64,000 nucleotides of DNA from Paraspadella gotoi (lineage: Eukaryota > Animalia > Chaetognatha), in assembly GCA_051294375.1 (NCBI GenBank), contig CM119265.1, positions 21,514,278 through 21,578,277 on the forward strand, written 5' to 3'. Below the pieces are notes generated by a model that made no database searches, was not told where the DNA came from, and saw nothing but the letters and a program-made list of their open reading frames with translations. The translations under genes and the position numbers were made by a program. Below, piece after piece: positions 4,701 to 53,063 of this stretch; positions within the stretch are counted from its first letter, which is position 1; every line of letters begins with the position of its first letter.

Positions 4701-7700
4701 ATCACGGCATCTCATCAATTTTCTGACTTTCGGTTCAAAACGTATTCCCCAGTGGGCTTTCGTCATTTGCGCGATATGTTCGCCATTCAGTCAGATGATT
4801 TTCTTGTGAGTTTCTTTTTAACGTTTAGATATCATTAAAAGCTCAGTAAAACTTTTCCGATTTAAAGAAATGCGTTAACTGTTAAGCAATGAAGGGACAT
4901 GATAAACCAAATCATATATTGTCCTTCAGATTTCCGTTTGCAACGAGTCGCTTAAAGAATTGTCAAATCCCGGAGCCAGCGGATCCATTTTTTTCTTATC
5001 CCGCGACGACGAATTCATCATCAAAACTGTGCAACACAAAGAAGCAGAGTTTCTTCAAAAGCTTTTACCCGGGTATTACATGGTAAGATAATTCTTTAAA
5101 CGTTAATGTATTCAATTGCTTAAATATAAAAGCTATCTCTTTAAAAAATTTACTAAATTTTGATTATTTTATATTTTATAATTTATATTTTATAAGAAAT
5201 ATCCTTCATTTATGCATAAGTTTTGTTTTTAGCCGAATAATTTTCAGCCATTACCGTCATGTGCAAAAAAATCGCTCCACTTTATTCCGGACTTTAAAAT
5301 TATTCTATATATGTACTTGAATTCTTTTTAAAAATTTAAAAAGTGAATTTAAATTTATTGAAAGATGGATCGGCTCTCAAAATAAATAAATAATAATCTT
5401 AAGGTTATTAATATTTACGATGAATGACAGGTCCATAATTCTGAAGCTTTTAGATAAAAGTCGATTTTCCCGTTTAAAATTATTTTTTTATAAAATTCTT
5501 AGAAATGTTTTTATAGAGGGTCTGAAATTTAAAGTTATAAAGTGACCATATTTTTTTGCACGAGTGTATTTGAAACGTCGTTACCGAGCTCATGAAATAT
5601 CAACCGCTTTACTCTTTTATTTCAGAATCTAGTCCAAAACCCAAGAACACTTTTGCCAAAGTTCTTCGGTTTATTTTGCTATCAGTGTAGTGGGAAAAAC
5701 ATTAGATTAAGCATCATGAACAATTTGTTGCCAACGTCGATTCCCATGCATCTGAAGTACGATCTCAAAGGCTCAACGTTTAAAAGAAAAGCGTCAAAAC
5801 ATGAAAGGGCGAAAAAGGTAACCCGAACCGTCCCTTCTTTCGCTAAGGTAAGGATTTGCTGTCCGCGTTAACTCTCCTATCTTTCCCATCGCTTCAGTCG
5901 CCGACCTTTAAAGATCTGGACTTTTTGGAGCAACATCCTTCGGGGATCGAACTCGAGGTCGAGACCTACGAGGCTTTGGAGAAGACTCTCCGCCGCGACG
6001 TTCGCGTCCTCGAGTCCTTCAAGATCATGGATTACTCGCTCCTCCTTGGAGTGCACAACCTCGACGAATATGAGCGGGAGAAGAAGAGAACGTGCGTATT
6101 TGCTTGACTGTTTAAATCCTAATTAAATTTTTTTAAATAAGTTGAAAGTTTTATTCGAACCATCACTTTAACTTAGACGCGAAGAACGCAAAAAAGCAGA
6201 CGTCACTCCAGACTCGGGCGGCGGCGACAACGACGACCCCGAAAATGATGGCGATAACAACGAATCGCAAGAAGAAGCGGAATCTGAGGGTCTCGGCGCC
6301 ATCGCCAAATTGGCTGGAGCTTCAGTTAAAGGTAACATGAAAGGCGCAAAATTATAATTATTATTATCGTTGTTATTATTATTATTATTATTATCTCATG
6401 AAGTTACCGGATTCGCCTGAAAAAAATGAAAAAAATTGAAATTTATAATAACATATTTTATATTTTTGACCTAACTTTTTATAAAGAGTCACAATCTTTA
6501 ATAAATATATTTTGAAAATGAATTATTTTGTAAGGTTGGATAATGTTTAGCAGTCGATTATTTTTTAAAATTTTAATCATCGGTGAAAAATGATAAAAAT
6601 TAACGGTAAAACGTTAAAACCGGTTAATTTGGTTGGTAACTATCCTTATTTTTGGAGAATCACAGGAACTGCCAAAATGTCTTAATAAAATATTAGTTTA
6701 TATTCTAATTAATTTATATTGACCCCCTTTTCCTTTTATTTCTTTTTCTGGCAGACGTATATTCATTAACAATAAATTCTTCAAAAAAAAACAACTACAA
6801 AACAAAAAAAATCCTAAAGGATTGTGTACTTATTCATAAGGAATTTAAAATTCTGGTATAGGAGCAGTGAGCATTTGTTAACAGACAGTACCTTGGGAGA
6901 GTGGGACTCGTTGAACTTGAAACAAACAGAAGATTTTGGGCCATCAAAAACTCAAAATAAAAACATTTTAAAATTAACCGTTAATTTTAAAAAAATTAAT
7001 CGATCAATTTGAAGAGACAGTAATTATTGTAATGTGTTAGTGATAGAACCGTTCAATATAAACAGTCCCTGAGCTTCGGATCAGGGTGTAACACCATGTT
7101 ACAGGCGGGTTAAGCACCCCGTCCCTCTTAACTGCTAGGCGACCACCGGGCTAGAACCCTGGACCTTTGGGTTGGGAGACGAATGACTTGCCTCTGGCAC
7201 CAATGGCCGCTGATGAACGGTTGGTGGATTTTAGTCCACCATAAATTAAAATTATTTTTCATCGATGATTAACCGTTAATCGTTAATCGGATAAAAGGCC
7301 TAATTGGGACGAGCTGGAAGGGAAAATGCTATCCGAGAGGCAAATATAGGATATCCCCCCACATTACATATTAATTTATTATAATTATATTTGTTCGCAG
7401 CCATGATTGTTCGTCAGAAGTCGATGAATCGCGAGCGCCTTTCGACGTTCACTACGGCTATGGAGTCCATAACAGCGGAGACGCTGAACGACCCGATAGA
7501 TTTGGACGAAGACATTCCGTGAGTGATAAAATAAATGATTATAACGGACGACGAATCTGGCTGAAAGCTCGACTCGCTCTTCATTCCTTAATTGATACAA
7601 TTTGCTTCTAACAGCGTCGGCGGCATTCCAGCTCGTAACTCCAACGGGGACCGTCTGCTTCTCTTCATTGGTATCATCGATATCCTCCAGAATTATCGTC

Positions 7701-10700
7701 TCGTAAAGAAAATGGAGCATGTGTTCAAAGCGGTCGTTCACGATGGGGTAAAAAAGGAGCGAGATTTTCACGCTTAAATATTTTTTTTTTCGCCATTATT
7801 GATAATCAACAATTTGACAGGATACCGTTTCCGTTCATCGCCCCGATTTTTACGCTGAACGTTTCCTCGATTTCGTTCTGAAAAAAGTGTTCCGCAAAGT
7901 GCAATCACGTAAGTGACGTTTTCAATCCTATCTTTTTTCCCATTTCCTTCCTTCCTTCCTTCCTTCCTTCCTTCCTTCCTATCTTTCTCTTACCCCGCAA
8001 TCCACTCAGAATGGTTTTTTTTTTATACTTTTTTGCATTCTCGTGAATGTCATGAATTAAATGAACATGCTCGCAGAGTTTTTGCGCATTCAACATCGCT
8101 TTGCATCAATTTTAGTCGCTATTTTTGCTTGTAGTGGTTATTTGCATTATTAGAATTCCCGCTTGAAACAAACCCCTGAACTGGGAATTTCTGTTATTAT
8201 CTTATGAAGCGTCGGAATATATTGAATAATAAATAGTATAACAAGTTAATTTTTAGTATTTAACTAGACGGTCAAAAAAATTTCAGCGAGCTTACCAAGA
8301 AAATATCTTTGCTATTCTGAAGTGGATACTTAGAATTTTGGAAAAAAATATATTTAGAAATACCCATATTCTCTGTGACGTTCCTGTTATATCATATCCC
8401 TACCGCATTAACAATTAACCAAGTTGTACCTCTCTTTAATAAAAAAAGTGGATCCCCCTGATTCTGCGGAATGCACTGGAGTTCAAAAATTCCGCAAGAT
8501 AGCGCTTGGTGTCGTCGCTTCTGAGGGTAAAAAAAATTAAAATAAAAAAATGATCGTCCCGATTATTTTTTTACTTAATGTAATCACCTTAAAAGATTTA
8601 AGTACAATTATTTTTTTTCTTATTTTTCCTTGTGTACTAAATTATTAACCTTCAATCAGTCCACTTATACGCAACGTTAATCGCTATTTTAAGTATATTT
8701 TATGGTTCATCATTGGCACCGCTTTTTTCAGACTTTTGGACGTATGACCTTTTTACGCTCTTATATGCCGTGTAGTTTCATTTTTCTGGGGTCATTAATT
8801 GTGGTAATGCTAAAGTGAACATTTACATACTTTTGGAGCGGGTTCTGCAAGTTTTTTAATATTTTTTCCTTTTTACATTTTTATTCCTTCCCTTATGATA
8901 TTTTTTCGTCTGCATGGTGCATCTTTTATTCGCATGACATCAAACTTTACCAATTGCTTCTCGCGTTGTCTGGTAAAGTGGATCCCTGGCCGGCGCGCTC
9001 TCAACAGTCAATGTTTTCGTCGATAAGAAAAAAGGTTTCGAGTCGTTCACATACCAGCGACGGTTCAAAAGGGACGAGTAATTCTGAGAAACGGAGGGAC
9101 GGGATCAGACCAAAATGTGGCGCGAGTTGCTCTTTGTGTCTTCACGGTGCTACCAAACAAAAAGTTGGATACAATCGTAACAGAAGTAGTGAAAGAAAGC
9201 CAGGTTGGGGCTTACTAACTTTCTTAAATCATCCAAGTTAATTAGGCATCCTTGTCAAGTCTGACGGCCTTAATGCATATTATTATCAAGAATTTTTCTA
9301 AAATAGTATTTGTTATAATCCTGATTGATGCAGATGGCACGGTAAAACTTTTACCGCCTTATTCGAATTTGTCATCACGGACAAAATTACCGCCACAAGT
9401 GTCCTTCGCTACCACATTAGCCGATAATGTTATAGCCACCCCAGGCTCTCTTCACCTGCATCCGGATATGCAGGGAAAATACGACTATTCCCCCCATGGA
9501 GGGTGAGACCAAGTTTTACTGCTGTGTTGCGAATTTGTTTATAGTATCTTCTCGTGTTTTTTTTTTCGTCGCAATCTCCTGCGCTTGCGACGATTTTGTG
9601 ACGATGGTCCCCATAAATGTCGTTGTCGTCGTCGGCGTTCCAATTATAGATCACCCTTTCTTAAATTATTGGTAATTGTATGAAGTTGAAGATTTAGACA
9701 TATTCTCATCAAGGTTCTTGAAAACTGATAAGGTACTACATTAAATGTGATTTATTGATTTTATATAAACAAAAAAAAATTATTTTATTTATGTCTCTTT
9801 CTCTCTGTCTTTTTCTCAGTCGCTGCCTTTTCTGATTTGTCCAAAAACGAGTTGAGCTCCGCAGCGGCTGAACGTTACGCGTCTCTCTCTCACTCGCTCT
9901 CTTCTCTAACTTTTTTTCTCTCTATTTCTTTTTTTTCTTTCTGTCTCTCTGTTTTTTTATTAAAAAAAAAATTGTATCAGCATCGAACTCGTGATGTTAA
10001 GAATGGCAGTCGCACATGTTATCATTTCACCATCTTTTCCTTTTTTTTTATTTTTTCATTATCTCTCTTACATTTATTCATTCAATTTCTTCAATTAAAT
10101 TAAATAAATTAAATTCGTTTAATTTAATTAATTCAGTTCTTACTTTTAAGTTTATTTATTCAATACAATTTATTTATCTCAATTCTTTTTTTTTTAGAAT
10201 GAAATTTAAAGTTAAACTTAATTCATTCATATTTATTTTATTTCATTTTATTCATTTCATTTTTATTTATTTATATTTATATTCATTTATTTATTTATTC
10301 TTATATATTAAGCCAAGTTTATGAATAAAACTTTTTGTATCAAATATGAATTTTTGTTTGAGTTTCAAAGTTTGTCATGGGTCCATAATTTTTATCTGCG
10401 ATTACGACGATCCTTATACTTTTAAGATTTTTTTTGAGGCCTCTCTGACGATCAGTGTTATCATGTCCCACATGATGGGCAGTAGTCTAAGTTTCTTTTG
10501 CGAGCAGCCGAGGAGGTATATATACATATTGAATGATGTAAACGAGTTTTGTTTGTTAGTGTCGTCGAATTAAAGTTCAGCGATGTTGCAGGGTTTTAAC
10601 TCTCTCGATGAATCGTCGCCCTCATTCTTTCTATGGTATGCGATCATGCGCCCTTCCTTCCCCTACCGCCTCAACCCGGCGGAGACGGTCGCATCTCAAC

Positions 10701-27200: not shown

Positions 27201-30200
27201 AAAAACAAAACCTTTTATTGTCCATGAAATGAGCCATACCTTTGATCATCTCTTCAAGTCGTATAACTTGAACTTCTGTTTGTTTTTTATACCTTCACAT
27301 AAATAACCTATTATTATAATTTGTAAATACTTTTCTTAATACTAATTTTATTATTAGAAATTTCTCAAAAGATTGAAGTGTTCAAAAGATTTTTACATTA
27401 TAAATACAGTGACGTGATTAATCTTTCTTTCGTTTTGTTTGTGTTATTTGAGATTAAATAGGACTAAGCTCTGACGAAAAAAGCCAGAGGTTTTTTTAAT
27501 ATATTCTTTTACCGGCCAATGTAGAATGATGGCAATATTGCTATTGTTAAGTTTCAAAAAAAATCCGACCATAAATATAGAAAATATTAACCAAAATCTT
27601 TGGAAAATCCACCCCTTCTTTGGAAGATTTTCACCATAGACGATTTTTATTGAATCTGACTCCCGGTTGAAAACTCTTAAAATTCCGATCATTAGCTCCT
27701 CTTTTACTTTTACTTTAAATAAAAATTTCACCAAAATGGACTAATTCATTTTACCATGATTGTATCATATTAATATAACCAAATAAAATGTGAAGAAAAA
27801 TTTTGAGAGCACGTGGGCAATAGACTTGTGGAGTCCCACACTTCGACCACAGGCACTTCGATGGACTTGTGGACAACTGACGGAGGCGGTGACAGAGGCT
27901 GACACCCTCGACGACAAAGGGTCTCGGCGTCACTCGCGACGGCACCACCAAAGGGGCGCTGGATGCGGCCGCGCCCACTTCCGGCGACGAGGGGAGTTAA
28001 CGGCAGTCTCCCCCAGTAATGGCGCGACGGGTCATAGGATGGAGATAAGCCTGGCAAGGCAGTCTGACTACTAGTTCCTCGACAGTAAAAGGGCCTTATT
28101 TGTGTCTTCGTCCTTTGGGGTCATAGGACGGAGATATGCCTGGCGAGGTAGGCTGACTACGAGTTCCTCGACAGTGGAAAAGTAAAAGTCAGTGGATCAA
28201 TTTTATTAAAAGTATCAGAAATTGTGGATCAACAATGGTTCTTTAGGTTTGTTTTAAATTTGTTAAAAATAAAGACTATAATAAAGATATTACTGTAGTC
28301 GGGCATTGCATAAGTTCACCCCGCCTATGAGCATGACACCTTCAGTCGTGACTCGGTTGCTCATTGAGTAAAGCCATCAGCTCATGACCACTAGGTACCA
28401 GGTTCAATCCCAACCCGGTACCTACCCTGCGGGAAGCATGAGGACGGCCGTAAGCCGCCTTGGGGGCGTGGAAAGCCCTCAAGCCTGATTCCAAGCCCAG
28501 GACCCGTTCCATGGCTGCTAGAGGGGGTCATAGAAGTTATGGATAGTCATCTTCAGCCCACATAGCGCCTTATCCACATTAGCCATTATAATAATTATAG
28601 GTATCAAGTATATTTAGCAAAGGAGGAATTGTTGTAAGCAGAAAAAAGGCACAATAAATCTTAAGATCATAATAGATATATTATATCAGTTTCACACATA
28701 TGGATGATTCATAGGCCTTAATATACAGTAAGAAAGATGAAATAAAATGACTATCGCCAGAACTGCTGCTGGTGAATTTTTGCGCATCATTTTTGGGAAT
28801 CAAGAATGATCAATTTGTTGAGAGAAAATCTATTTGCATCTCCTGTAACCAGAGGTTTTGCGAGGAAAGCCTAGTTTTTGCGCAACAATAAAAAGAAATA
28901 TTGCTTTCTGTACTATTCCAATATTTTTCTTATTTGAAAGATTCTTTTTGGGTTTTTAGTTAGACTTACCCCTACAGTACCTAGATTTAAAAAATAAAAT
29001 TTTTCTTCTTAGAATTTTCCATACAGTAAATATTTCAAAAAACCTTGTTTTTTGGAATCAAATTCCCTATTATTTTTTGGTCGATAGAAAAAAAAAAAAT
29101 TCGTCGAATACTGCTAATCCCTATCTATGGCGAAAATCTTCCAAAGAAGGGGTGGATTTTCCGAGGATTTTGGTTAATATTTTCTATATTTATGGTCGGA
29201 TTTTTTTGAAACTTAACAATATCAATATTGCCATCATTCTACATTGGCCGGTATAAAAATATATTTAAACCTCTGGCTTTTTTCGTCAGAGCTTAGTCCT
29301 AACATTATCTAATATATTTTCTTACCAAATGTTAACCTCTGCTTCTCTCTCTCTCTTACAAAATTTAATTTCTTTTCCCTCACATTCTCTCTCTCTCTCT
29401 ACCAACTTAAACCTGTCCTCACATTTCACCACTGTTCTGTCTCACATCTTTGTTGGCCATTTTTTCCCTCTCTATCACTCTCTCTCTCTCTCTCTCCCTA
29501 AGTCAATTTTGAAAACATGAAAATGTGAATTGTCAAAGCATTGATGAAGGCTTGAATGTAAGCCAAAACTTGTCTGTACCACTAAAAATAAATTCGTTGA
29601 TGTAAAAAGACTGTCTTTAATCTCAAATAAATACAGTGACAAAAAACTAAGTTAACCTCATCGGGTTTTACCTGCACCATATAGTTTCAATTTAAGATCG
29701 CCAAAACAATTCATAATTTTGTAAAAACTATAAAAGTGTTTTTAATTATGAATCTAGTAATAATTTACTTGCTAGTTTTGGTAAATAAACCTGATCCATG
29801 CAAAGCTTCATGCCAGACAACAGCGGTGACATTTCCATTGTTGTCACCCATAATCATTATAGCTTGATTCATGTTATCTTTGTTAAACCAATAGTCAATG
29901 CAACCCAAGCAGGTCTCAAATCCGACGATGTGATAGCGTCTGAAAGAAAAATTTCAGAAAATTTGTTAAAAAACTAATTAAATAATACTTTATTTTTTGT
30001 GGATTACCTCCAAAAAGAAGTGCCGGTTGTATCATAAATATGGATATCACGATTGGTAGTTGTGGCGGCTATTGCATTAACATTAAGCATTGAACAGGCG
30101 TCAAGGATCCAAACCTATTTAAAAATCCCATGAAAACGAAAGGCCAATTATTTTTCTTTTCTATATTACCTTACTGTTCATTGCTTTACGAGTAGGAGTG

Positions 30201-33200: not shown

Positions 33201-36200
33201 TCCGAGCTTTTATTGAGTATTGCTCGTTTCCTTGAGCTGTTTTTTTACTGTGAAATATTGGTTTCTAGGAACTGGTGCGTCATGGCATTCCGAGGCCTTT
33301 TCGTGGGCTTGCTTGGCAACTCATATCTGGAGCGTACGATTCGGGATCAAAAGAATTATACAGGTTTTCACGAACCTCGTCTACCCATCGCCCTATCATT
33401 TTTAAATCAATACTGGATTAATTTTACTTTCGCCGACCGGGGTTAAGGGTGGTTTAGGGTTACGGGTATTTAGGGTTAATAGATAATAATTTTTTTTAAT
33501 TTTTTTAAAAATAAAAAGTTTAAATTGGTTTTTCAAAAAACGCCAAAACCCCGGTCGGCGAAAGTAAAATTTTGCCTCAATACTTTTTGTTTTTTCAGCG
33601 AATACATGAAACAGACTTCGCCGTGCGAGAAAATCATCCGGCGAGACATCGCGAGAACTTATCCCGAAAACGATTTCTTTCGTGAGAAGGATGGCTTGGG
33701 CCAGGAGAGCCTTTTCAACGTCATGAAGGCTTACTCTCTGCATGATCGGTTTGTAAATCTTTTTGCTTACTTTTCAATTATTTTTAAACCAATTATCCGT
33801 TGAAATTTATTTTCATTTTGTTTGCAGTGAAGTGGGCTATTGCCAAGGTTCCGCATTCATAGTCGGTCTTCTTTTAATGCAAATGCCGGAGGAAGAAGCT
33901 TTCGCCGTACTCGTTCAACTCATGCAGAGATTTCAGCTGAGAGAATTGTTCAAACCGTCCATGCAAGGTTATTGAATACTGTTCAGTATTCAGTGTATAC
34001 AGATTACATAGGCTTATCTGATAACAATGATCTCGGTCTCACTTCTTCTGTAAACTATGAAGCTTAACTTTTAAAGCATTTTCACGAGGCTCAAGGTGTT
34101 ATTGCATCGATTATTACTACTATTATTATTATATTAGAAAGATTTACTTTATATTTCAGAACTAGGACTTTCGATGCATCAGCTAGATTCGTTGGTCCAA
34201 GAGCAACTTCCCGATCTTCATGCACATTTCACTCAACAGAACTTTCATACTACTATGTACGCGTCGCCATGGTTTCTGACGCTCTTTGCCACCTCGTTGC
34301 CACAGGTACATATTTGCTTCTATAGTCTTATATTAACCTCAGCCCTTTCTGTTACTACATATTTGTATCTATTACATATGAAAATTTGCAAATTACTTGT
34401 TTCACTATTTTCTATTTTATATTTATGAAGGATTTAGTATTTAATCTTATTTTTAATCAAACATATATTGCTTTCTTTCTTAAAAATGTTTTATTTATCT
34501 AATAATTCAATTTGGGAAGGGGAAGTCAGTGTTGTCTTCTGGAAATAGAGGGAGCATCTATACAACACAAGGTTAGATTACTATCTGTCCTAGTTTTCTA
34601 ATAGATATCACACATCATTTCTGTTAGAAAGTCATTAATGAAAAATCATAATATCTAAGAGGCTGAACAGAAAGGGGTGGGAATGGATAATTTTTTAGGG
34701 GTTACCAAAGTTATATATGATTTTTTTTACCAATAGGGATAAGACTACCATGTAGAATTGTATGTTCTGATAGGGATACATACCGGGGAAAGGTCTATAG
34801 GGGCACCTTTATGTCATGAATATAATTTTAAAATTATATTTTTTCTTTATTCTACTTTTTAATTATTTCTTTTTTGAATATTTTTATCTTTTATTTTTAT
34901 ACAATGGGAAGGTCATCAGTTGGGAACCTATACCCTTCATGGATTTCGGCTCTTTAATCCCAATATCCAGGTATAGGCGAGCCATCACCAAATGGTGATC
35001 CTTCATTGTTGCTTATCTTATATTTTAAATGTATATCTTGAATGTTTATCTGAAACAGACCAAAGCCCTGGAGAAATTTTATTAAGGTTTTGTAATAATT
35101 TGTAATTTGTAAATAAATAAAATAAGTTAAATAATTAGTTTAATAATAAGTTAATAATTAAGGGTATGTTAATGTAAAGTTAACATTAAGTTAATTGGTA
35201 AAAGTTAAAAAATAAATTAAATCAGAGAGTTAAATATAATAAATATATATATATAAAGCAGTGTTTATTTTGAGTATTATAGTATTATGGCAACTGCCGG
35301 GTTTCCTGTGATGCCCATCTCACTGTTGGCTTTGGGGGCTTCTGACCCTCAGTGACGCCTCCAGTCACTGGCGCAGTTACTCTAGGACGGTCTTGCTTTG
35401 CCAACGCAGAGGGAAGACTGGATGGAACACAACGCCTGGGATGGTGTGTTCCCCCTCTGAGCCAATGGGATTGGCTAAACGATGATGGACATGAGGTGGT
35501 GTGAATATACCACCACAGGATCCCCAGTCCATCACTCGGGTTCCTCAAGCCTGAGAGGTGTCTGACAAGACTATTACCATAGTGGGAGAGAGAGAGCGAG
35601 CGCGAGTTGAGGGGGCATAGGCGTTTGTCGTAGCGTACCCAAAGTTGGCAGGGCATAGGCATTTGTCGTAGCGTATCCTGAGAAGGGCTCACCACTTATG
35701 GCAACAGCCTGCAATGACCTTTGGGATGGGGCATCTCAATGTTGGCTTTGGAGGCTTCCCACCCTCAGTGACGCCTCCAGTCATTGGCGCGGTTACCCTC
35801 GGACAGTCTCGCTTTGCCAACGCAGAGGGAAGTCGTTAGGACTGTGGGATGGTGTGTTCCCCCTCTGAGCCAATGGGATTGGCTGAACGATGATGGACGT
35901 GAGGCGGTGTGTATATCCCGCCACAGTATCTAATATTTCTTTAGCATTTTCGATTTCTTATGTTAATGTTTTTTTCAACTCAGGATCTTGCTGCGCGCGT
36001 CATGGATCTCATTTTGGCTGAAGGAACGATCTTTATTTTCCAAATGGGAATGGCTATACTACGCATGTCCGCTTTGGACCTCATGGCTCTCGACATGGAG
36101 CAAATGATTCGGGTGAGAAAATATATGGAGCCGAATGCGTGCAAGAATAACCTCATTTTATGAAAAAATTTGTAATCGAAAGAAATTCATCGTACACCTT

Positions 36201-39200
36201 GATTCCGCTTCAGTTCTTCCAGAAAGAAGTGCCGCAGCAAGCGGAATCTGACGGACTGGAATCGCTGGTCCAGTCCGCCCTCGGCGTCAAAATATCCGCG
36301 AAAAAAATGAAGAAGTGGGAAAAAGAATATTTGCAGATCAAGTCGAAAGAGCACGAGGAGCTCGTCGAACTTCGACGACTAAGGACAGAGAACAAACTTC
36401 TCAAACAGCGGATCGTTCATCTCGAAAAGGTGAAGAATAAATTTTTTCTTTCACAAAATTTTTCATATTTACGCTACTGGCTTGATATAGCAAAGAAACA
36501 GAAATTCTAAGCCTCTAAGTTTATTGATTTCCGAATTTTAAAGCGTAGCGTAACTTACGAACTTTTCATTGCACTTTTATCAAAATTTTTTCTAACTTCT
36601 AAGTCTCAAAAAATTTATAATCTACAAGCGGATGGCGGATGTTTGATCTTCGGACGTGGCTTAAGCCGGACGTTCATTCGCCGGCAAATCTGGACAGTCA
36701 GCGAGGCATTCGAGCAGGTCTTTCTTGTGGAAGATGTTAGGGTACTGCTCTCGAGATAAAATCCTTCCCATTGCCTTTACGAACGAAACAGTCAGTTTGA
36801 ACTAAAAATTTTTTGACAGAGAAAATTTTTTTATCCCACCTTTCTTTGTGAAATTTGGTATTTCGATTTATTGGCGTAAAGCGGCGGAAATATGAGTTTG
36901 GATGCATCGGCGTATGTCGGGTATTTAATCTTTGATCGTACTCGCCTGGATGAAATGGAAGTGTTGAGAAAACTTTTAAAAGATTTGAATGCGATGGGTT
37001 TCGTCAATCACTTGTCGTCCTCCACGTTGTATTTTCTCTGCTCGCTTCGGTTCAGGAAGAGACTGGTATCGTGTTCGTAATTAGGAATTTTTCCCAAGCG
37101 AGCGTTTTCCAGGATGTTGCGTCGAACGCCGAAGCGGTCGCCGTCTTTAACGAAAAAGTTCTGTGGCATCTATTTCAAGGGTAACTTGATTTAATTATAA
37201 TTTTGATATTGCCTTTAAGCATGATATTCCGCCAGGGCATGATGTAACGCCCTGCGTCCATGTGTCGTTCGTAATTGTCCCCTCCATACCATCCGAACAC
37301 GGTTGAGTGTTGACCATAATTGACGCAGGCGGCGATCTAAAAATTAGCGCGGTATTTTTGGGGTTAGGCTAATAATAAAAGTTTACTTCATCTGTAAACC
37401 CTATTACCCGAGAATGATATGCGTAATATGGAATTCTTTTTTCGCTCGTGGAGAAATCCAAGCGATGTTTCAATCGATTGGTACAAACGGTTCTCTAAAA
37501 AAAATATGGAGTAGTATAATAGTATTGTTTTACCGAATTTTACTCAGTTTTTGTCTTGCCTGGCACTCTTCATCAGTTCCCTTGGTCAAAATCCCGATAG
37601 CCTGATAGGGACGTTGCAGCGGCCCGTCCGGCCCCCGAGGCTTGAGTTTAAAGCGAAATTTCTTGATTGGCTTGACGTAGCCGGTGTTGCAGAGATCTTT
37701 GAGCTTTTTCTGTTCGCAAACGGGGATGCCGCCTTTTTTTGGTTTAGGCGCCGGCGCCACCGCCACAACGATTTTCACAGCCCCCGAGGCATCCTTCGCT
37801 TGGATTTTATCTTTCTTCTCATCCAAACAGTGGCAGTCGAATTTACAATCACAAATTTTAACTTTTTCCGCCTTTTCCGCCGGCTTCTCGTCCTTGCAGT
37901 GGCAGTCGGCCTTTTGACAGCCGCAGTTTTTCGCTTTTTCCGCCATCCCTTCGGTTTGAGTGTAAGGAGTTATTTTACGCGGAGGTTTTAATAAGTATTT
38001 TTAACGAATGTGACCCATTTTTAGGAGAGCGCGGCCTTGGCCGACCGGTTGATCCAAGGGCAAGTGACGCGAGCACAAGAAGCCGAAGAACTCTTCGTTC
38101 TCAGGCGGGATCTAGCTTCCGCAAAGCAGCAAGGCAGCGACGCCGCGGGGGAGTTGGCGCGGACCAAAGAGGAATTAGAGAAATTGTCTGCTAAGGTATG
38201 TGGGTGGGTGATGTATCTCTAGATTTGATCAGAAGAACAGTTTGTTTTTGCTTTCCGTCTGATAGAAGAAACAATTAATCCAATGCTGCACATTAGGGTG
38301 GAGTGATGAAAAGATTTAGCGATGGAACAATGTTTTTTTCTGCCTTTGTATATGTAATAAAAAATAATTAAGCCATTTTTTAAAAAAAATTTGTATAACA
38401 GTATCATTAATTGAATTTTATTTATAGTAATATCCTTATAAAATCATAAAATTTTAAAATAATATTTTTCATCATATAGTTTCTACTACAAAGCGTGAAA
38501 AAATGGAGAATTTGATTTTTTCCCCATTTTTGATGCTGAAGACATTGAAATTTTTGATAACATATTTTATATTTTTGATCTAACTTTTTATAAAGAATCA
38601 GAATCTTTAATAAAAATTTTTAAAAATATTTTTAAAATTTATGATTTTATAGGGATATTACTATAAATATATTGTAATTAATAATACTTTTCCCCAAACA
38701 ATATAAGCAAAATATTTTTTTTAATCTTTAATCATACTGTCTCACGTTTAAATATCCTTGTTTGTTCTCTCAAATAAAATATATGTTCCCCAGTGCTCCA
38801 CTCTACTGCACAGCTGTTCGGAAAATTTAACTATTTGTATTTTTTTTAAATAGACAATAAACAATTATTATAGGATGGCAGAAAAAACTATCAATCTGTC
38901 ACTTATTTTAGTCCAGCCTTCAATAAGAATTGTTTCCAATTTTTTTTTAATTTTAGAGAATATTCGTGCGAAAAATCATGTTTTACTTTTGAGTTTGGCG
39001 GAAAAAGAGGCGAATTTCACAGAAAAATGAACTCCGATTAATAAATACTCTTTAAATTCGTATTTCTCGTTTTTATTTGGCTGAAAAGTTAATGGTCATG
39101 GCTTTCCACTTTTGTTCACGCTTGTTTCTTCGCGCTTGTTTCTTCACAAAACTTCACTCTCGACGCGTCTGGCACCGTCGCTCTTGCCTCCCGCACAAAT

Positions 39201-50138: not shown

Positions 50139-50446
50139 TTCTTTAAAATTTAATTAAATTAATTTATTCGTACCATGTGACTTTTATGGAATTTTTTTAG
50201 ATGTTTAATGGTGGTTTTTTTTTTTCATTACAACAATTCGTTTTTCTGAAATTAGTGTGATTTTGTTTTTCTCTTTTTCTTACCTCGCTCTGAAAACAAA
50301 AGACGAAACAAGATCCGTTATTTCTTGTATGATTGATTTTTGTTGTAATGAAGCGTTTATTGGTTTCCAATTTTTTACTACGCTACCAGAACTAACTACT
50401 GAAATTATTACATTATCAGTTATTTAGTTGAAACAATTAAAAAATC

Positions 50447-51868
50447 ATGTCGGTTGTTGGGCAACCGACGGTTCACTTCCCCTCGGTCGATCCCGGGAAA
50501 GACCTAGGTGGTGATACTCAAAAGGACGGAATTTGTAGCGCCGCTTCCTCTGGGTACGAATCTCGAATTGACAGAAATGTTCCATCCTATGGTCAACGTT
50601 CGTCGTCCGAAGACGACTGGACGTCTGACGAAAGTTTTGGCGAAAAGGCTCAGGCTGACGACAACGCCGGTGCACAAACTGCGGATCCCGGCGATGACGA
50701 GGACGGAACTCCCAACGAACAAATCGCGACTGACGTCTTTGATCGTCAGCGTCGCCTAGACGACAAGTTTTTATTCCTTCCGGCGCCAAAAGTCATCCAG
50801 GACTCTAGATCGCCAATGCAACGTCTTCACGATTATTTGGCGAGTAAAGAGGCGAAGTCCGTTGATCCGACTCCAATGGCGCAACTGAAGCAATACTTGC
50901 GCAACAAAATCTCCGTCGGCTTCGAAAAGGCCGGAAACTATGAGCTTGACCCGTCGAACAACCGCGTGGACAAAAACGACGACGTCAATAAGACCTCGTC
51001 CAACTTCAGTCTCAACAGCCTCACCTCTCAGGAATCGGGCGTCACTTCCGCGACGACTCAAACTCTAGATTCCGCCGACGAAGTCTTTTCTCACACTTAC
51101 GTCTTGAAGCAGAAGCGACTAGACAAAATGCGCCGCAGGAGTTCGGCGCGGAGTCGGTCCAGCGATTCTGAGACGCGTTGCTGCTTCATTTGCAACCAAG
51201 TCGGCCACGTTGCTCGTCGTTGCCCCTTAAGGGCCAGCCGGAGTGCTTGTCCCCGTTGCCAAGCTCTCGTCGATCCGAATGGCAAGGAAAAAGTCAGAAA
51301 AGGTTCTCAAACGTACGTGCCTGAAACGTCCGTTTTTGAAGGGGTGGCCAAGGGCAGCCGATTTGACACTTTCGACTCCATTCCCATCACCTTAACTGGG
51401 CAGAAAACCAGCAATTTATGTAGTATTAAACGGTTCGAAGAAGCCAATTTGCACCAAAAGGTAAAGAGAGAAAGAAATATAACTCTATCAAGATATAAAA
51501 TTTATGTTTCCTCAAGGTGGTGGACAATGTTCTAAGCGAAAACTATGAAAAAGCGACTCCGGTTCAGCGCTACGCCATCCCTATCATCCTCCTTGGGCGC
51601 GACCTAATGGCCTGTGCCCAGACGGGCTCTGGCAAGACTCTCGCCTTTGTCCTCCCTATTCTCAGTCAGATATTCGGTCGAGGCGTCGCGAATATCGAGT
51701 CCAAGTCTCCACTAGCTCTCATTCTCGTTCCGACGAGGGAGTTGGCGTCTCAGGTCCACAAGCACGTGGAGCGATTCGGTCGAGGGACGGATATTAAGTC
51801 GATGACTCTATACGGGGGTACCAGCCTCGCCTTTAACGTGCAAAAGATTGAAGAGGTTATTTTATGGA

Positions 51869-51917
<49 letters not shown>

Positions 51918-53063
51918 ATAAACCGTTTATCAGGGATGTCACATTGTCATTGCTACTCCGGGTCGACTTTTGGCTCTGATGCACCGAAAACAAATTAATC
52001 TTTCAAATGTCAAGTATTTCGTGCTGGACGAAGCCGACCGATTGCTTGACTTGGGCTTTGAGTCTGACATTGTCAATATACAAAAAAACGGTAGGTTTAT
52101 ATAATTTTCTCATTTTTATGGTAAAATTAAAAACTTGACCATCTCTTTTTAGGAATGCTTCCCAAGGGTCAACGTCAAACCATGATGTTCTCAGCAACTT
52201 TTCCTAAATCCGTCCAATGCTTAGCGGCGTCCTTTATGATCAATCATCTTTTCTTGTGCGTTGGAGATGAAGGCGTTGCCTGCCACAATGTCAGGCAATC
52301 AGTGATTCTAGTCCCCGCTGCTGAAAAGAAGCGAAAGCTTATTGAAATTCTCAACCAGTTGACCGGGGAGAAAGTGATGGTGTTCGTCGAGCAAAAGGTT
52401 TGGGATTAAACGATTTTAGTAGATATCTGTATTCTGTTTTGCGAAAGGCCTCGTAATTATAATTATATTCAAACAAAAATGTTTATTGAAAAGTACTTGA
52501 TTGTTTCTCTTCAGCGAAATGCAGATTTTTTGGCGTCTTATCTCTCGCTCACCGGTTTCCCATCTACTTCGATCCACGGCGATCGTGAACAGCCGCAACG
52601 CGAGGAAGCTTTGCGCGACTTCCGGCGCAAGACCACGCCTATTCTCATCGCCACTAATGTCGCTGCTCGTGGTCTCGACATCCCCGAAGTCGAAATGGTG
52701 GTCAACTATGACGTTCCGTCTTCTGCGGACGAGTACGTACACCGAGTGGGACGTACGGGACGATGTGGTAACCTAGGCAACGCTATTACATTCTTCGACG
52801 ACGAAAACACCGTCGACGTCGAGCTTTCTCCGGAGATTGTCCGCCAGCTCCGTCTTTGCCAGCAAGACGTTCCGAAATGGCTGGAGCTTCTTGCGGAGAA
52901 AGTCAAGGCCGCCGAGTCGAGGTCTTCTCGTGATTCGCGAAACTCGTTAAAGCGAGGAATGCGAGCCAAGGGTCCCAGCGAATATCTAGTGGATGCCGCT
53001 ATGAGTTCTGCAGAAGATTGGGAAGACTTCCAACAAACGCAAGAAGAAGAAACGTGGGACTGA
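50447..53063 (+). CDS. vasa: Vasa/DDX4-like DEAD-box RNA helicase with one CCHC zinc knuckle
   Basis: [14 protein letters not shown]; [95 protein letters not shown]; acidic Trp terminus EEETWD. Confidence 0.88.

Follow-up and report, generated by a model that had tools for sequence, protein, structure and literature searches.

The juxtaposition of a full-length tRNA-like sequence and a predicted twister ribozyme raises the question of what the two would do together and whether they belong to this locus alone. The original observation was of a tRNA-like unit abutting a twister at positions 7061 to 7210 of the window, by which is meant the whole 64,000-nucleotide stretch of DNA that was analyzed. 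These coordinates hold, on the minus strand. However, the locus is not a tRNA-processing device confined to one site but an aged copy of a dispersed transposable element present in very high copy number, and it is very probable that this is a mobile element with both a twister fold and a head derived from a tRNA. The interpretation that we prefer, with a probability of about 0.5, is that the copy is a solo LTR of a gypsy-mobilized non-autonomous element that would combine a Pol III promoter of the Helenus type with a cutter of the retrozyme type, here a predicted twister. It should be noted that most comparisons with published elements below refer to parts of the cited papers and not to their entire content.

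A Decayed tRNA-like Head

7139–7210, minus strand: decayed tRNA-Gly(CCC)-like head of 72 nt, with discriminator C7138 (Rfam, ARAGORN, and pairing check)
7191–7203, minus strand: A-box-like stretch, putative Pol III promoter element (read by eye)
7149–7158, minus strand: B-box-like stretch with GGTTC, putative Pol III promoter element (Rfam tRNA alignment)

The tRNA-like unit had been described as a full-length cloverleaf, and it is indeed full-length, aligning with 71 of 71 positions of the Rfam tRNA model, but the D and anticodon arms are mostly unpaired. The acceptor stem (7210–7204/7145–7139) is intact as described, with six Watson-Crick pairs and one G·U pair, and four of five pairs form in the T stem of the window copy; the anticodon stem has two of five pairs in the register tested (three of five in the ARAGORN drawing) and the D stem one of three. 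The Rfam alignment scores 11.1 bits (E 7) relative to a gathering score of 29. ARAGORN makes no call at the unit at its default threshold and reports a “possible pseudogene tRNA-Gly(ccc)” there from a threshold of 85%, its calls in the whole window numbering 0 at 90% and 26 at 80%. The predicted fold of the unit is a three-way junction (z −2.73; 7 of 200 shuffles are as good). The four paired arms and the passing model score of a functional tRNA are thus both lacking, and the unit is a full-length decayed tRNA derivative, not a cloverleaf or a working tRNA. The stretch at 7191–7203, which we take to be A-box-like when judged against the general consensus, matches box A of Helenus elements (TRGCY...YGG) only partly.

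A Predicted Type-P5 Twister

7061–7136, minus strand: predicted type-P5 twister fold (descriptor and pairing check)
7136–7130/7067–7061, minus strand: P5 (pairing)
7125–7124/7109–7108, minus strand: P2, two Watson-Crick pairs only (pairing)
7121–7119 with 7079–7077, minus strand: pseudoknot T1, three G-C pairs and a possible U·G (pairing)
7106–7105 with 7074–7073, minus strand: pseudoknot T2, two G-C pairs (pairing)
7103–7098/7092–7087, minus strand: P3 (pairing)
7085–7081/7072–7068, minus strand: P4 (pairing)
7123, minus strand: predicted general base, G7123 (from the twister literature, PMC8501958)
7111–7112, minus strand: predicted cleavage site, U7112/A7111 (placed by the UAA motif of the descriptor match)

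Two bases, C7138 and U7137, separate the tRNA-like unit from P5, as had been predicted, and the twister layout and cut position are likewise borne out at the level of pairing: all of the stems and both pseudoknots pair, and the core motifs occur with P2, P4, and P5 in the order of the P5 type. Cleavage at U7112/A7111 would give a 5′ product of 99 nt from 7210, of which 27 nt are the 3′ trailer, in agreement with the length foreseen. The descriptor used in these searches was composed after inspection of the sequence and then control-tested on 20 phage loci. It has a single match in the window and none in 100 shuffled windows, and among the phage loci it recovered seven of eight Rfam Twister-P5 sites (the positive loci include two apparent duplicates), with 0 matches in the 14 loci that have no Rfam match. 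In contrast to the descriptor match, the Rfam twister family (RF02684) gives no match up to E 10, even on 88 bases, and so does not reach its gathering score; no Rfam hammerhead matches at the element. With a model built from seven phage twisters the site scores highest (19.4 bits, E 0.03; the next is 11.2), in a shifted register that places UAA at 7101–7099. This alternative register was rejected because it leaves P2 unpaired.

It should also be recognized that a competing hairpin, in which the G-run of T1 pairs with the C-run of P2, has a predicted energy of −28.0 kcal/mol versus −17.7 kcal/mol for the nested fold that is compatible with the twister, a comparison in which the pseudoknots are unscored. 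Positions 7077 and 7121 of T1 both vary, but this was not counted as covariation since both are CpG transitions and their linkage is unreadable. The descriptor has 0 matches among the at least 120 loci listed for viruses from a loose motif, a metagenome scan with a twister-core motif gave 0 loci, and no tRNA is near the seven phage twister loci. Phage contig L122 carries two Twister-P5 matches about 240 nt apart (299–355 and 538–599), and locus L129 is twister-like by eye at 295–353, with no Rfam or descriptor match.

A High-copy Dispersed Repeat

7010–7243, minus strand: whole mobile unit of 234 bp, candidate solo LTR with ends TA-TG...CA (loose ends, contig depth, and MFE)

The stretch containing this unit is present in nine sequencing runs of one organism, and its extent, with sharp ends, is given by the contigs of five runs. 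Loose contig ends cluster at 7009/7010 and at 7243/7244 in all five of the runs examined; runs X4, X5, and X6 contain 140, 109, and 82 junction contigs at 7009/7010 and 240 (at 7243–7245), 136, and 124 at the right edge, respectively. The flanks in these junction contigs are AT-rich and unrelated, with a consensus agreement of 0.39–0.51. The summed contig depth in DNA runs is 4–5 orders of magnitude greater over the unit than in unique flank (3.3–4.1 million versus 142 in X4), although these values are not copy numbers, and blastn finds no second copy within the 64-kb window. The CpG ratio of the element is 0.63 versus 1.28 for the window, and the fold of the whole unit has an MFE z of −3.15, with none of 200 shuffles as good. 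Many internal deletions with filler, each in a single contig, are seen among the copies. In X9, a run guessed to be of RNA, contigs span the element and the predicted cut, but contigs of this kind reveal neither strand, ends, nor level. Two X9 contigs carry 7211–7243 only, diverging exactly at the tRNA boundary; such a lone 33-bp end module possibly represents a sister family or a partner. Of the 60 open reading frames listed for the window, 16 were scanned with Pfam, and none of these has a domain of a reverse transcriptase, an integrase, or a transposase. A single metagenome locus (L286) matches the terminal 22-mer of the element, over those 22 bases only and in apparently coding DNA, and was treated as chance.

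The window copy differs from the majority letter of the run contigs at eight positions, and three of its eight minority letters (7116, 7160, and 7195) are CpG transitions. At 7062 (P5), 7086 (P3), and 7160 (T stem) the majority letter restores a pair, and the three variants at paired positions that exceed 20% in X4 or X6 (7136, 7139, and 7142) all preserve pairing. With only 20 positions across the unit varying at 1% or more, little weight can be given to the invariance of the core. Given that the locus belongs to a high-copy transposable element, its tRNA part most likely represents a Pol III promoter that was captured.

These observations bear directly on the view that the locus yields a stable tRNA-like RNA of about 100 nt with a cyclic-phosphate end, which would act in the cell as an RtcB substrate, a primer, or a decoy. 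The acceptor and T arms are retained, with the common variants preserving their pairs, and such a fragment would arise as a by-product if solo copies were transcribed by Pol III and cut. However, the unit is a high-copy element with the eight minority letters given above in this copy, its D and anticodon arms are lost, and an intact acceptor-T stack is more likely to be trimmed by RNase Z; also, a T-loop motif precedes a loose twister motif in 145 phage loci, of which 27 have a tRNA, and none of the 145 passed the relaxed descriptor. Nothing supports the proposed role as primer or decoy, the only site complementary to the tRNA-like 3′ end, by eye, being the acceptor stem itself. We therefore consider this explanation very improbable.

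Ends, Apparent Target Duplication, and Internal Architecture

7006–7009, plus strand: left copy of the apparent 4-bp target-site duplication, AATT (sequence)
7244–7247, plus strand: right copy of the apparent 4-bp target-site duplication, AATT (sequence)
7222–7241, no strand assigned: terminal 7-bp hairpin, 2 nt inside the element end (sequence and fold)
7214–7222, no strand assigned: 5′ arm of the inverted repeat as read on the minus strand, 21 bp inside the unit (shuffles; paired in the whole-unit MFE fold)
7047–7055, no strand assigned: 3′ arm of the inverted repeat as read on the minus strand, 37 bp inside the unit (shuffles; paired in the whole-unit MFE fold)
7010–7060, minus strand: 3′ end module, U5-like (sequence)

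The 9-bp inverted repeat that had been taken to bracket the unit is present, and when the two end zones were shuffled 20,000 times one arose in 79 cases, but the true ends of the mobile unit are 37 and 21 bp further out. Four-base matches between the flanks are expected by chance at about 0.9–1.2%. Other copies in the run contigs have a 4-nt V-T-A-Y frame on both flanks, with ATAT, GTAC, ATAC, CTAC, and AAAC on the left and CTAT, CTAC, GTAT, ATAT, ATAG, and ATAC on the right. The AATT/AATT pair breaks this frame identically on both sides, which favors a 4-bp duplication, the copy-by-copy comparison being for the window copy only (n = 1) and the family-wide frame being indirect. Both a 6-bp duplication starting with TA and a 2-bp TA duplication were rejected, the former because left flanks lack TA at −6/−5 and the latter because one variable base separates TA from each end. 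Short CTACCT-like starts recur in some right-flank consensuses, possibly reflecting a purine tract or else a target in a microsatellite; the loose-end consensuses contain no clear shared internal sequence.

On the minus strand, CA is at the 3′ terminus and TG is 2 nt in from the 5′ terminus. Because the internal part of several animal Helenus elements has TA as its last two bases, directly before the TG of the LTR (PMC10886601 supplement, in part), the extra 5′ TA may, by analogy, be an unremoved two-base extension. The sharp ends, the unrelated flanks, the 4-nt flank frame, and AATT on both sides are consistent with a solo LTR, as are the majority letters that complete pairs and the common paired-position variants that keep them. 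Against this reading, the ends are not TGT...ACA and the extra TA is constant, the terminal hairpin resembles a signal of DNA elements, as do the asymmetric inverted repeats, a Rfam twister score is absent, and no two-LTR copy, PBS, or PPT is present among the displayed joints and loose ends of contigs, which collapse shared junctions. The sole end-to-start joint among those displayed is a single-depth contig that joins two copies through 38 AT-rich letters, without PBS or PPT.

The hairpin and the asymmetric repeats that flank the tRNA-twister cassette favor instead a non-autonomous DNA element, either HINE/Helentron-like or of an unclassified type with subterminal repeats, whose end modules (7243–7211 and 7060–7010) would be the mobility signals and whose cassette would be captured cargo with no role in transposition. 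The retention of 7211–7243 alone in the two X9 contigs and the abundance of internal deletions with filler also fit this scheme, and HINEs carry subterminal repeats and a 3′ palindrome (PMC4067079). The 5′ repeat of HINEs is, however, 2–4 nt from the end, whereas the arms here are 21 and 37 bp in, and HINEs insert in TT without duplication, unlike the 4-bp duplication frame of this element, so that assignment to HINE/Helentron was rejected (PMC4067079). CryptonS, which has TATGG at both ends, was likewise rejected since the motif is at one terminus only. DDE elements need terminal inverted repeats, and the ends at 7010 and 7243 have none. A DNA element is a rather unlikely alternative to the solo LTR.

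The P1 Linker and a Possible Dimer

7113–7118, minus strand: minimal P1 with one G·U pair and a palindromic tetraloop; self-complementary 6-mer (linker length and self-duplex)

In the Rfam consensus P1 starts five bases after P2′, which here leaves 7118–7113, a linker of 6 nt versus 17–42 nt in seven phage twisters. P1 normally has at least 2 bp, and cleavage is slow without it (PMC8501958), whereas in the monomer of the present sequence a single G·U pair is possible. Because P1 is nearly absent and the hairpin described above competes with the fold, cutting by the monomer is doubtful. The 6-mer is, however, self-complementary in register, with a self-duplex of −3.8 kcal/mol, and the majority letter at 7116 makes its central pairs Watson-Crick in most copies. 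Hammerheads with a single-pair stem and a palindromic tetraloop require dimers (PMC7229834 and PMC6765202), and by analogy we infer a domain-swapped twister dimer that shares P1, so that cleavage may occur mainly in the dimer; the palindromic one-pair P1 predicts cleavage that is gated by dimerization. Since such a 6-mer is self-complementary by chance in about 6% of cases, the dimer is a lead and not a result.

Dimer dependence also invites comparison with the Schistosoma SM-α type of SINE-like or non-LTR retrozyme, in which Pol III would read through tandem units and ribozyme-cut monomers would be inserted by target-primed reverse transcription with a LINE or Penelope enzyme. SM-α and the animal non-LTR retrozymes have a tRNA or Pol III promoter beside a self-cleaving ribozyme, and dimer-dependent ribozymes with a one-pair stem and a palindromic loop, in this case a tetraloop, are known among them, in Penelope elements and in amphibian retrozymes (PMC6765202, PMC4918200, PMC7229834, and bioRxiv 10.64898/2026.07.22.740005, each in part). 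Their ribozyme is a hammerhead and they form tandem arrays with longer target duplications, whereas a predicted twister, dispersed monomers, and a 4-bp frame are found here. Furthermore, none of the joints displayed (15 of 63 and 15 of 20) is a direct head-to-tail one, both ends are sharp, 33 bp precede the tRNA, and the copies do not begin at the predicted cut site. The 3′ end module has no A-tail, simple repeat, or T4 terminator, the first U run being in the flank at 6995. An origin of this kind is unlikely. A tRNA-derived SINE has the tRNA head at its very start and a tail, A-rich or of simple repeats, at its end, and this class was rejected in view of the 33-bp leader and the sharp, non-repetitive end.

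Proposed Mechanism and Its Significance

In the solo-LTR interpretation, Pol III would initiate at the tRNA head of the upstream LTR and, because no T-run follows the head, would read through the element. The twisters in both LTRs of a full-length copy would each cut at U7112/A7111, probably with the palindromic P1 linkers paired as a dimer, and RtcB would close the released unit, which has a 5′-OH and a 2′,3′-cyclic phosphate, into a circle. A gypsy-type reverse transcriptase and integrase, which the non-autonomous element would borrow, would then copy the circle into DNA and insert it with duplication of 4 bp, in most cases as a solo LTR. RtcB circularization has been demonstrated in vitro for animal retrozymes, according to parts of that literature. 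The RtcB ligation that was originally suggested is in this respect plausible, but the relevant step would be circularization of the cut element transcript as opposed to ligation of a tRNA fragment of about 100 nt. The window copy would be an aged solo insertion that is antisense in an intron and unable to cut the host pre-mRNA.

A tentative proposal, which we think rather improbable, is an animal “twister retrozyme”: an LTR element without genes, equipped with a Pol III promoter of tRNA origin, whose twister would act as a domain-swapped dimer by way of its palindromic P1. If it is correct, two-LTR transcripts would be cut to circles and the many solo copies in host transcripts would be left largely uncut; a twister gated by dimerization would then exist in nature, and the element would connect TRIMp3 elements with retrozymes.

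Twisters are widespread, and Rfam misses the present form entirely, so that counts of short-P1 twisters in animal genomes may be too low. The one function proposed for twisters in the literature covered is 5′-end processing of RTE LINEs (PMC8501958, in part); the mechanism outlined here, if true, would be a second and different one. It would also unite two separately described kinds of element, the Pol III-driven TRIMs (Helenus and Cassandra) and the ribozyme-cut LTR retrozymes, the latter having been described from plants, with hammerheads, in the parts of the literature that were covered.

Relation to Known Elements

The closest parallel for the promoter is Helenus (TRIMp3; PMC10886601, in part), in which a tRNA-derived non-functional sequence with box B GGTTC is located in an LTR-sized repeat, with a 4-bp duplication in animals and solo copies. 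Like the present element, Helenus has no primer site complementary to the tRNA-like 3′ end in the account of Kojima (PMC10886601, in part). Most Helenus LTRs are, however, TGT...ACA, many with a T-run after the tRNA, whereas a twister is at that place here and the ends are TA-TG...CA; also, Helenus is defined by two LTRs around a PBS and PPT, and no two-LTR copy is seen in the displayed joints and loose ends of the contigs. The main text of PMC10886601 does not contain the word “twister,” and four L4 motifs have one match in its supplement, in an internal part, although line breaks can hide matches.

The plant LTR retrozymes (PMC4918200, PMC7761336, and PMC9695139, in part) resemble the element in having a self-cleaving ribozyme in an LTR-sized repeat, a 4-bp duplication, and many solo LTRs, and their proposed circular RNA intermediate, closed by tRNA ligase, parallels the model presented here. 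In one Nicotiana benthamiana retrozyme family, for which the source was likewise partial, 9 complete elements are found among 304 matches, and solo or partial LTRs dominate. These retrozymes have a type III hammerhead and, as far as the cited portions go, no tRNA-derived promoter, in contrast to the predicted twister and tRNA head of this animal element; assignment to the LTR retrozymes was rejected since their type III hammerhead is replaced by a twister fold. By analogy, the element would join a Helenus-like promoter and duplication with a retrozyme-like cutter, membership in either group not being established.

With regard to the ribozyme itself, twisters of type P5 (RF02684) and the Schistosoma T-variants in Perere-3 (PMC8501958, in part) share with it the GA-NGG, UAA, GC, and UCCN-AAGC motifs and both pseudoknots, and P1 is weak in the T-variants too. 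However, the T-variants mark the 5′ end of an RTE LINE, whereas this ribozyme is mid-element behind a tRNA and its P1 is a 6-nt self-complementary linker. The theta ribozymes (PMC10879173, in part) are also small ribozymes directly 3′ of a tRNA, but they are HDV-like, occur in phage, and cut adjacent to a real tRNA, as opposed to 27 nt past a decayed one in an animal repeat. Neither a tRNA-plus-twister element nor a dimeric twister was found in the literature searched, which comprised sources other than subscription journals and Repbase.

Host Intron and Neighborhood

6332–7400, plus strand: host intron (GT..AG) of the PIP5K gene, with the element antisense (gene structure)

The host gene is identified by the downstream exon at 7610–7744, which matches PF01504 (PIP5K) with E 3.5e-10. 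Degenerate inverted arms and palindromes are present around the element (6573–6607/7238–7272, 6966–7003, and 7265–7290), and they have in common with the element's own inverted repeat a heptamer (6976, 7047, and 7271). The element may have inserted into an older one of low copy number.

The same intron contains a second AT-rich dispersed repeat at 6432–6519, which is deep in four sequencing runs and has another copy at 38544–38627 (90.6% identity over 85 bp by blastn). A fragment of a further repeat is at 6828–6892, and the consensus common to the loose ends behind 6892 finishes in CACTG-TA, which we take to resemble a Tc1/mariner-type MITE end. Two other pairs of sequences in the window are possible small elements, a 182-bp inverted pair at 27459–27640/29124–29301 (94%) and a 207-bp direct pair at 35316–35522/35732–35930 (85%). 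The genome, judged to be that of an animal, also bears lectin-EGF, bestrophin, and DEAD-box genes, and the CCHC and DEAD-box helicase exons at 50441–53063 are presumably vasa-like.
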